From positions 1 through 26,871 of IMG/VR virus record IMGVR_UViG_3300032332_001057: a DNA stretch of 26,871 nucleotides. One strand, 5' to 3'. Shown one piece after another: positions 6,348 to 7,944 of the stretch (positions are counted from its first letter, which is position 1; every line of letters starts with the position of its first letter). The stretch comes from a virus (taxonomy: Duplodnaviria > Caudoviricetes). Position numbers and translations under genes: made by a program. A model generated the notes under the pieces. It was not told where the DNA came from. It made no database searches and saw nothing but the letters and a program-made list of their open reading frames with translations.

Positions 6348-6521
6348 ATGATGATCCCACTTTCCGAGCAGGTGTTCGTCCCGCTGCACCGCGTCGAGAG
6401 AATCTCGTTCTTTGCGGAGCACGCCATCGTCAAGTTCACCGACGACCGCACCGTCGAGAAGATCGACGGCGAGGACGCCCAGCGCCTGCGCGAGTACTTG
6501 CGCGACCGTTGCGGGCTCTGA
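6348..6521 (+). CDS. Hypothetical protein (57 aa, not in the ORF track)
   Basis: Manual translation MMIPLSEQVFVPLHRVERISFFAEHAIVKFTDDRTVEKIDGEDAQRLREYLRDRCGL; typical codon usage; ends at the terminator. Confidence 0.6.
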   Translation: MMIPLSEQVFVPLHRVERISFFAEHAIVKFTDDRTVEKIDGEDAQRLREYLRDRCGL

Positions 6522-6570
6522 CAAACGAAAGCGGGGCGCACGCTGCATGCCGTGCGCCCCGCGGGTTTGT
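6521..6570. terminator. Probably bidirectional intrinsic terminator between convergent genes
   Basis: Perfect 12-bp stem GCGGGGCGCACG (6531-6542) / CGTGCGCCCCGC (6551-6562), flanked by ACAAACGAAA and GGGTTTGT. Confidence 0.7.
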
Positions 6571-6580
6571 CGTCGTTCGA

Positions 6581-6967
6581 TCACTTCATCAGGTCGCTGA
6601 GGACAGGCGCGCCGTACTTGCCGCTGCGCGCTGCCTGCTGCACCTTCGCAGACGAGACTTCACGCATCATTGCGTACGCGCGCAGCCGCGCGCTAGCACG
6701 AAGGCTGTGCAGCAGTTCCGCCGTCTCGACGCTGATCGCCTGGATCTCGACCGAGAAGATGATGCACGACCGAAGCGCGCGGTGCAGGCGCTCGATCGGT
6801 TCGCCGCCTTCGAGGGCTGCTTGAAGCGGGTCGCTGTCGGCGAGCGCGTCGGCCCGAGCAAGCAGGTTGGCGAGCGCGACATTCGATTCGGCGAAGTCTC
6901 GAAGCGGGTCGGCGATCGAGCGGTAGTCGGCGGTGAGTTCGGCGATCTGACGGTTGTTCTTGGCCAT
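6581..6967 (-). CDS. Hypothetical helical protein; the only clear reverse-strand gene
   Basis: 128 aa; preceded on the minus strand by a GGAGTAGAAC RBS, a leader hairpin and a conserved promoter. Confidence 0.75.
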   Translation of the reverse strand: MAKNNRQIAELTADYRSIADPLRDFAESNVALANLLARADALADSDPLQAALEGGEPIERLHRALRSCIIFSVEIQAISVETAELLHSLRASARLRAYAMMREVSSAKVQQAARSGKYGAPVLSDLMK

Positions 6968-7012
6968 GTTCTACTCCGTTGGTTGTGGTCGAGCGACATG
7001 CCCGACCTGCGT

Positions 7013-7041
7013 AGTCTACCCTACATCGGCGCAGAGTGCAA
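7013..7041 (-). promoter_or_regulatory. Conserved phage promoter (leftward copy)
   Basis: Minus strand reads TTGCAC-tctgcgccgatgtaggg (17)-TAGACT, then hairpin GGTCGGGC-atgtc-GCTCGACC and GGAGTAGAAC-ATG. Confidence 0.75.
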
Positions 7042-7080
7042 GTCGTCTTGAGAAGATTTTCCAAGATCGTCGTCGTCGGC

Positions 7081-7320
7081 CTGCTCCGCAGTTCGTTTGG
7101 TGAGCAGCAGGAAGACCATGACCCTGCGAAAGCAGGGCCATGTGTTCAGCCCGATCGGAGCCGCACGAGGTTTCCCTTTGCCGATGCTTTCACCATTTCG
7201 CTGGGTGGTGCCAGCCGCCTCTGCATCGGGAGAGCGCGCGGAGGAATCCGCGGCGTGCGCTAGGGTCAAGACGCACGACTAAACCACTCTCCACCTACAG
7301 CGGCGTGGAGAACTCCGACA
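7081..7320. other. Hairpin-dense non-coding segment (structured RNA or origin)
   Basis: Stems: CTGCTC/GAGCAG (7081/7102); CCCTGC-GAAA-GCAGGG (7122-7137); CCGATGC/GCATCGG (7181/7223); CGCGGA-GGAA-TCCGCG (7237-7252); CGTGCG/CGCACG (7254/7272); TCTCCAC/GTGGAGA (7288/7305); possible long-range TCGGAG/CTCCGA (7155/7313). No convincing ORF. Confidence 0.5.
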
Positions 7321-7323
7321 GTC

Positions 7324-7352
7324 TTGCGGCGCACCGCTTGTTGCGTTAGACT
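7324..7352 (+). promoter_or_regulatory. Putative rightward promoter of a small RNA
   Basis: TTGCGG-17 bp-TAGACT; same -10 hexamer as the 7013 promoter. Confidence 0.5.
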
Positions 7353-7358
7353 GCGAAC

Positions 7359-7452
7359 GCTCGGGTCTTGCAACCTGCACGATACGCGTTCAGCGCGGTT
7401 CGCGCAAGAGCCCCCGCCGCAGGCGCACCCGCCCTGCGGCGGTTTTATTTTT
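7359..7452 (+). ncRNA. Putative ~95-nt small RNA, antisense to a leftward transcript
   Basis: Lies between the 7324 promoter and the 7414-7452 terminator; folds GGGTCTTGC/GCAAGAGCCC plus the terminator hairpin; no credible coding sequence. Confidence 0.45.
7414..7452 (+). terminator. Intrinsic terminator
   Basis: CCGCCGCAGG (7414-7423) / CCTGCGGCGG (7433-7442) followed by TTTTATTTTT. Confidence 0.75.
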
Positions 7453-7453
7453 G

Positions 7454-7500
7454 CCCATAAACAAACCGCGCGCGATCGGGCCGCGCGCGGTCTGCATGGG
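7454..7500 (-). terminator. Long hairpin; possible attenuator/terminator on the leftward transcript
   Basis: ACCGCGCGCG (7465-7474) / CGCGCGCGGT (7482-7491), extended by CCCAT/ATGGG; followed by TTGTTT on the minus strand. Confidence 0.5.
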
Positions 7501-7515
7501 GGAAAAGATGCAGCC

Positions 7516-7543
7516 ATTGTAGGCGGTGATTTTTCCAAGTCAA
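7516..7543 (-). promoter_or_regulatory. Leftward sigma70-like promoter firing into the non-coding region
   Basis: Minus strand TTGACT-16 bp-TACAAT (near consensus); no credible ORF downstream. Confidence 0.6.
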
Positions 7544-7555
7544 GTGCAATACACC

Positions 7556-7584
7556 TTGCACCCTAGCATTCCGATATGTATCCT
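7556..7584 (+). promoter_or_regulatory. Conserved phage promoter for the regulator/methylase operon
   Basis: TTGCAC-cctagcattccgatatg (17)-TATCCT; the -35 is one arm of GTGCAA-N6-TTGCAC (7544-7561). Confidence 0.7.
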
Positions 7585-7605: not shown

Positions 7606-7944
7606 ATGAGACACTCAGCAGACGGCAACGAACCGCGCCGCACCCGATCGCAGCGCACAAGATGGAACACGCAGGACGCAGCGTGGCACGAGATCCAGCC
7701 CGCGCTGTCAGGCATCGGCGCGCGCGTGTTCGATTCGATCCTCAGCAGCCCCGCGACCTGCGACGAACTTGAAACGAGGCTCGACCTCACGCATCAGACG
7801 TGCAGCGCCGCCGTCAACAAGTTGATGCGCGACGGCCGCATCGTCGCCGACGGCGCTCGCCCGACGCGCTCGGGTCGATCCGCCCGCGTGTGGAAGGTCG
7901 CCATGCCCGAGTCGCTGTTCTCGTTCAACCTGGGGGCAGCGTGA
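7606..7944 (+). CDS. Winged helix-turn-helix DNA-binding protein
   Basis: AAGGAG RBS; ATCDELETRLDLTHQTCSAAVNKLMRDGRIVADGARPTRSGRSARVW is a wHTH with a wing. Confidence 0.75.
   Translation: MRHSADGNEPRRTRSQRTRWNTQDAAWHEIQPALSGIGARVFDSILSSPATCDELETRLDLTHQTCSAAVNKLMRDGRIVADGARPTRSGRSARVWKVAMPESLFSFNLGAA

Follow-up and report, generated by a model that had tools for sequence, protein, structure and literature searches.

Plasmids of the ColE1/pMB1 type (NC_001371) have no element-coded initiator. They have a long structured pre-primer, RNA II, under a host-type promoter, and an antisense RNA I; an opposing promoter lies inside the 5′ part of RNA II, which is 550 nt long with an overlap of 110, according to the available part of PMC5043065. 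The MRB (Marine RNA-Based) plasmids of Vibrio have a Rep-less origin of ~500 bp with two opposed RNAs, conserved across unrelated backbones, and the accessible portion of PMC3035462 describes a 68-nt RNA I that is fully complementary to RNA II. ARRPOF, PAGEV and GEBRO are multi-pseudoknot plasmid motifs of 220-350 nt in Rep-independent replication regions (PMC5737381 and PMC12990946, in the sections available). At the R-loop origins of phage T4, a phage transcript is the primer, as stated in the part of PMC3016281 available to us. Other phages have initiator and loader modules, in which a protein initiator (DUF1376/phrog_270, 9474, 3992) is followed by a G39P-like gene. T4 codes for its own replisome, and a conserved tertiary RNA fold is, to our knowledge, not part of the T4 R-loop origin model.

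Here we compare with these systems a non-coding element, module A, located at 7089-7372 on the minus strand of a 26.9-kb tailed-phage record (IMGVR_UViG_3300032332_001057; the whole stretch of 26,871 nucleotides is referred to as the window). Module A resembles ColE1/pMB1 in that no element-coded initiator was detected, in that it would give a long structured RNA from a predicted host-type promoter and in having an opposing promoter inside the 5′ part of that predicted RNA. It is shorter (~285 nt), its predicted overlap is only ~14 nt, and it is found in tailed phages rather than in plasmids. With the MRB plasmids, compared by description with pB1067, it shares a Rep-less region and, as predicted, two opposed RNAs, but its predicted counter-RNA is not fully complementary to the long RNA. 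The plasmid motifs are similar in size and in their pseudoknots, yet they belong to different hosts and elements and none was matched here through Rfam. If module A works as proposed below, its transcript would be a primer in an R-loop, as in T4. The initiator and loader modules occupy the same gene slot in two genomes (G024 and G025); those modules carry a protein initiator, whereas module A genomes carry a non-coding RNA module.

Likeness to ColE1 does not extend to sequence. The Rfam RNAI model scored 22.6 against a threshold of 47 bits, on one flank. Searches of ColE1-type origins with the phage HMM and CM gave best E-values of 1.1 and 0.24, respectively, and an HMM of seven ColE1-type origins found no match at E 20 among the 28 representative elements described below. 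Sequence searches against plasmids gave no match to module A. A short likeness to ColE1 RNA II, picked out by eye, was not significant in the HMM and CM tests and was rejected as homology. Because the homology tests failed and the antisense geometry differs, we do not count module A as a member of the ColE1 group.

Location, conservation and fold of module A

The record is 66% complete and includes genes for head proteins, portal, terminase, RecT, RusA, a Gam-like protein and a methyltransferase. Sequencing runs with near-identical DNA are labelled freshwater, estuary or aquatic. In agreement with the original prediction, no replication gene was found among the 43 window proteins scanned. Matches to phrog_864, annotated as DNA primase, fall on the methyltransferase part of that profile and therefore were excluded from all counts of primases. 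A search for tRNA and tmRNA genes found none.

The element sits between a leftward gene for a 128-aa protein (6967-6581, minus strand) and a rightward HTH gene (7606-7944), each of which has its own TTGCAC-type promoter. That of the 128-aa gene (TTGCAC-17-TAGACT, 7013-7041, minus strand) belongs to a promoter family of the phage and is not part of the RNA; that of the HTH gene is TTGCAC-17-TATCCT (7556-7584, plus strand). Members of this repeated family lie at window positions 7041, 7556, 13273, 14416 and 15491, most of them with CCTA next to the promoter and CCGAT in the spacer, and the repeat is possibly an operator for a phage HTH protein. The 128-aa protein has no usable family or Atlas match, and the search for relatives was also empty. 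Its gene forms a cassette with the RNA (~6520-7455), and this cassette is inverted in the two closest relatives, L004 and L005 (L004:5350-6320). No recombinase was recognised, and no joint of an actively inverting cassette was present in the contigs of four runs, contigs being assemblies that drop rare forms.

Relatives were found via neighbouring proteins, and their common non-coding core is 70-83% identical by blastn. A pattern built on the core retrieved true homologs at 83 of 85 viral loci and at none of 66 cellular loci, while 51 of 120 metagenome matches were true. The resulting 106 loci, with some contigs taken twice, contain 64 distinct cores, which we reduced to 28 representatives below 93% identity to one another; these are 49-71% identical to the window. 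Across their alignment, a structure of 62 base pairs is formed in 96.7% of cells, and 33 of the 62 pairs show two-sided change, a count reached by none of 500 shuffles. Slid controls pair in 38-43% of cells; the structure was derived from the same 28 sequences and so is favoured over these controls, yet single helices show three to four pair types. The stems are therefore conserved and covarying, which is what the original prediction required of them. Its statement that the region has no credible ORF also holds. Raw ORFs of 61-90 aa cross the region, but the reading frame is not conserved, and in 11 of 27 relatives the difference in length to the window is not divisible by three.

Folding of the single sequence is less telling. 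On either strand, the stretch 7040-7510 has a better fold than any of 100 shuffles (z -3.6 on plus, -4.6 on minus). Under a crude shuffle, the z of the 300-nt core alone is about -2.5, while 18 control windows from the same contig reach values as low as -3.4. Single-sequence folding of the core is unexceptional, and the real support is comparative.

The 5′ end of module A is placed by its promoter, and conservation ends on the 3′ side at GAACTG (7094-7089). Four helices cross others. A long-range pseudoknot pairs 7286-7283 with 7209-7206, with covariation in two of its four pairs. P5 crosses P6 and P6 crosses P8; P5 and P8 covary in one pair each. The crossing helix 7268-7263 with 7124-7119 has no covarying pair, and 7124-7119 can alternatively pair with 7139-7134. 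The core has invariant segments without covariation; helix P9 never varies.

No Rfam family accounts for this fold. With Rfam 15, including ARRPOF, PAGEV, GOLLD, ROOL and C4, the window and eight homologous loci all scored far below the gathering thresholds, and the check suggested at the outset returned no family at any threshold tried. Comparison by blastn with phages, plasmids and E. coli genomes gave short chance matches or none. A search with the module A model, with 20 candidates scored per genome and no positive control, gave no match in 151 genomes from the phylum to which a Phycisphaerales MAG belongs, a choice guided by a guess at the host. Our literature searches, whose scope left out most subscription papers, turned up no description of this RNA; the candidates of PMC10690425, which derive from IMG/VR and are at most 151 nt long, may include parts of it. 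Judged by the alignment, 7089-7372 is a new structured RNA family with multiple pseudoknots and no Rfam match. It occurs together with different head and tail modules.

A reduced relative containing the P6/P7 subdomain was also observed (L393:11170-11330, minus strand; L391:18770-18935, plus strand). It lies upstream of an operon with ParB-like, SF2 helicase and primase-like genes in two siphovirus-like genomes.

Strand and facing promoters

The original prediction left the strand of the long RNA uncertain, since two GNRA loops favoured plus and the strongest promoter favoured minus. These loops, GAAA at 7128 and GGAA at 7243, do close stems in the plus-strand fold, but the comparative data favour minus. 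When the named helices are read on the minus strand, there are 135 G-U against 18 A-C cells, and a strand-symmetric helix search gives 70 against 10, again for minus. In most relatives the variable loops are GNRA or UNCG on the minus strand, and a strain variant at 7135 is a wobble on minus only. On this pairing evidence the question is settled, and the long RNA is on the minus strand.

Its promoter was missed by the original prediction, which had assigned leftward transcription to a near-consensus site (TTGACT-16-TACAAT, 7516-7543, minus strand). That site is present in the window, but a second leftward promoter of this kind is found in only 2 of 28 representatives, that is, with a counterpart in one of the other 27. 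The conserved leftward promoter is TTGCGC-17-TATCGT at 7379-7407 (minus strand); all but one of the 28 representatives have its -10 box, and 21 have a TTG -35. Near-identical strains have TTGCAC or TTGCAT as its -35 (variants at 7403 and 7402), which shifts it towards the family consensus. Facing it is the rightward promoter TTGCGG-17-TAGACT (7324-7352, plus strand), correctly identified from the start and conserved, with a -10 box in all 28 representatives and a TTG -35 in 25. This -10 box lies in helix P1 of the long RNA and covaries with it (two-sided change in five of six pairs). The two -10 boxes are 31-37 nt apart in 27 of 28 representatives.

From these promoters, starts are predicted at ~7372 on minus and ~7359 on plus. 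Since the conserved leftward promoter is 7407-7379 and faces 7324-7352, the two RNAs would overlap by only ~14 nt. A short counter-transcript (7359-7452, plus strand) is predicted to end at an intrinsic terminator with stem and U-tail (7414-7452), located where the original prediction had placed it; on its way it would cross the promoter of the long RNA. The length of this transcript is not conserved. A terminator ~95 nt downstream of the rightward start is present in 5 of 28 representatives, and the layout in which a ~95-nt RNA is fully complementary to the 5′ part of the long RNA is not conserved.

These data bear on a true ColE1-style pair, in which a primer transcribed from 7543-7516 would be controlled in copy number by a fully complementary inhibitor RNA of ~95 nt (7359-7452). 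The window does contain the two promoters and the terminator, compensatory changes preserve the terminator stem in L004 and L005, and the layout is one that ColE1 and MRB plasmids use, as far as the available parts of PMC5043065 and PMC3035462 describe it. However, besides the rarity of the upstream promoter and of the terminator among relatives, the conserved leftward promoter falls inside the supposed antisense unit, and the 7543-7516 promoter lies outside the cassette that is inverted in L004 and L005. We consider such a pair quite improbable.

No conserved 3′ terminator of the long RNA is evident in the flanks. In L022 and its relatives, the motif CCCCCGGAAGC is conserved 130-250 nt to the right of the promoter pair, with a hairpin and a T-run after it. 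The same CCCCCGGAAGC motif flanks the slot in module A, B and C genomes (see below) and is absent from the window.

The gene slot and replication genes

Forty-four long related records were retrieved, selected for length among the loci already collected, and a simple script predicted their genes. Twenty carry full module A and are near-complete (19 of them at least 90% complete). The gene 3′ of module A belongs to eight families and is convergent in 5 of 20 genomes and co-directional in 15 of 20. In 7 of the 20, it is a member of a family whose profile matches, in G024 and G025, the gene that immediately follows the protein initiator (E 3e-6 and 4e-5). A neighbouring Atlas cluster of this family has G39P_N in 11% of its members; the link to G39P is weak, with a pairwise E of 0.054 and no PHROG or Pfam match.

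The variety of next genes is informative about a cis-acting role in controlling adjacent genes, whether as a leader, an attenuator or a genetic switch. Face-to-face promoters, the alternative pairing of 7124-7119 and a co-directional gene in most genomes would all suit such a switch. A leader or riboswitch, however, would always lie upstream of, and co-directional with, one gene class, and this is not what we find: the next genes are of eight families, they are convergent in a quarter of the genomes, and the co-directional ones have their own promoter-like site in the cases read. For these reasons, we do not regard module A as a leader and find cis control very unlikely.

The slot itself is exchangeable. 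In one tight clade of 23 near-identical loci it holds module A in seven, module B in seven and module C in eight, with flanks ~87-100% identical. Modules B and C are unrelated to A. Module B is a conserved non-coding stretch of ~350 nt (L389:4558-4944, minus; L387:7933-8291, plus; L373:3164-3520, minus) with its own promoter-like site and 12 viral loci by pattern. Module C is non-coding and ~500 nt long (L413:5759-6257 and L382:12178-12669, both plus), with 17 viral loci that are 83-100% identical; in G022 an HNH gene lies just upstream of it. Neither has an Rfam match. Their folding z values are -1.3 for B and -2.4 for C, and their diversity is too small for covariation. No initiator was found in the three module B and two module C genomes fetched.

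Within the detection limits of our searches, no initiator, primase, helicase or polymerase was detected in any of the 20 near-complete carriers, extending the earlier observation that no replication gene is visible. The searches comprised PHROG and Pfam scans of family representatives (structural families left out) and of 90 of the 148 gap ORFs, a six-frame search of 45 records for each of three initiator families, and phmmer with four initiators. Among the 24 related non-carriers, 12 have a replication protein: ten an initiator, and two (G016 and G017) a primase-like gene and a helicase. The contrast of 0/20 with 12/24 has a Fisher P of 1.3e-4 with kinship ignored; shared ancestry of the genomes makes the counts non-independent, and some of the non-carriers probably have different hosts. 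G016 and G017 have a partial A-like subdomain (27-29 bits), and the genes they share include the primase-like protein and an SF2 helicase (the G017 copies were scanned). The other 12 non-carriers divide into five with other non-coding modules and seven unexplained (five near-complete, two fragments). In these seven we recognised no initiator and none of the modules A, B and C, so carriers are not alone in lacking an initiator, and some initiators may have escaped detection.

Two further observations concern individual genomes. L361 (16388-16935) and L371 (11226-12038) have non-coding gaps with AG-repeat tracts, in genomes without a recognised initiator or module A, B or C; these gaps are possible further origin types. 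Carrier G010 (L255:3922-5498) has a Tet/JBP oxygenase beside a TET-associated glycosyltransferase, which suggests DNA base modification.

A putative RNA-primed origin

Directly 3′ of the RNA core, the minus strand, which would be the one displaced by an R-loop, has a C(GNA)G DNA mini-hairpin at 7081-7091. A strain variant at 7086 alters only N of its loop. Hairpins of this type have greater stability in DNA than in RNA, and they are found at the G4 and ssiA priming sites, according to the available part of PMC13037366. Within 150 nt 3′ of the core, they occur on the RNA-like strand at 23 of 37 loci and on the other strand at 4 of 37, over a genome background of 6% and a shuffle mean of 2.2 (maximum 7) for the 37 loci. 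The other 14 loci lack them, among these the loci of the clade in which the slot holds A, B or C. ColE1 has a C(GNA)G mini-hairpin at its own G-tract, and ColE1/pMB1 and some carriers have in common a G-run accompanied by a GC(GNA)GC mini-hairpin close to the 3′ transition. GC skew, proposed originally as a check, was of little help: the window has no skew switch, and the cumulative skew reverses close to the element (within 1-2 kb) in two of five complete carriers and not in the other three.

Such hairpins could mean that the whole structure acts as single-stranded DNA, as a lagging- or complementary-strand priming signal, with the promoters serving only to open the region. Covariation does not distinguish RNA from single-stranded DNA (PMC5737381, in the part available), and the mini-hairpins adjoin the core. 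Yet only three of them lie inside the 37 cores, the G-U excess and the GNRA or UNCG loops are on one strand, and a promoter is situated exactly at the 5′ end. We give this reading only a slight chance.

A rather unlikely but more serious contender is a trans-acting role of a large structured RNA that has nothing to do with priming (as a scaffold, a decoy for proteins, or an anti-defence or ribozyme-like RNA; compare GOLLD and ROOL), initiators being undetected or unnecessary. The invariant core segments, such as P9, and the several pseudoknots resemble a catalytic or binding RNA, and module A has its own promoter in a variable context. The seven non-carriers without any recognised initiator fit this reading too, as does the co-occurrence of a partial module A relative with primase and helicase genes. 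It leaves unexplained, however, the difference in replication proteins between carriers and non-carriers, the position held in common with a protein initiator and the strand-specific DNA mini-hairpins 3′ of the core, and the flanks show no conserved 3′ terminator for such an RNA.

Because module A is found in genomes without a detectable initiator gene, at the spot where some relatives carry one, we consider it likely to be an RNA primer. Our preferred reading, at a probability of roughly 55%, is an RNA-primed origin that would work like ColE1 without being homologous to it; that module A is a replication origin of some kind appears somewhat more probable still. The ColE1-like origin of the original prediction survives in this modified form. 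Covariation, initiator absence, slot position and mini-hairpins lend real support to a structured RNA at an origin; the ColE1 layout gains no such support, and no homology to ColE1 RNA I or RNA II was detected.

As an RNA-primed origin, module A might work as follows. Host RNA polymerase would start near 7372 and transcribe the minus strand through 7089 into a folded pre-primer RNA, from which host enzymes would start replication in place of a phage initiator protein. The ~285-nt domain would fold, with its pseudoknots, and so cause the growing 3′ part to remain paired with the template just beyond 7089 as an R-loop. The displaced strand would form the C(GNA)G mini-hairpins, which would keep it single-stranded and serve for loading of a host helicase or primase. 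The RNA end, perhaps trimmed by RNase H, would be extended by a host polymerase. The facing promoter at 7324-7352 may limit firing, through polymerase collision or a short duplex at the 5′ end, with no antisense RNA of ColE1 length.

A wider and more tentative proposal, which we would not yet bet on, is that lytic-type tailed phages have replaced the protein initiator by RNA more than once. At least three non-homologous RNA initiators (A, B and C) would then be swapped as cassettes in the protein-initiator slot, each a new class of primer RNA under face-to-face promoters.

Taken together, our results indicate that module A is a new structured RNA family and probably a variant of the RNA-primed replicon. 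Initiator-free replicons of this kind are known from a few plasmid families, and here a non-homologous one would be present in abundant freshwater tailed phages. If true, this would explain how phages of ~40 kb without a recognisable replication gene copy their DNA, and a single gene slot would be shown to alternate between RNA and protein initiators. Even for ColE1, the way in which a folded RNA brings about a persistent R-loop is speculative, in the account given by the available part of PMC5043065, and independent families with deep covariation are natural comparisons for this step. Even if module A is no origin, it adds an RNA family with multiple pseudoknots that is new and already aligned, and modules B and C are two further candidates beside it.
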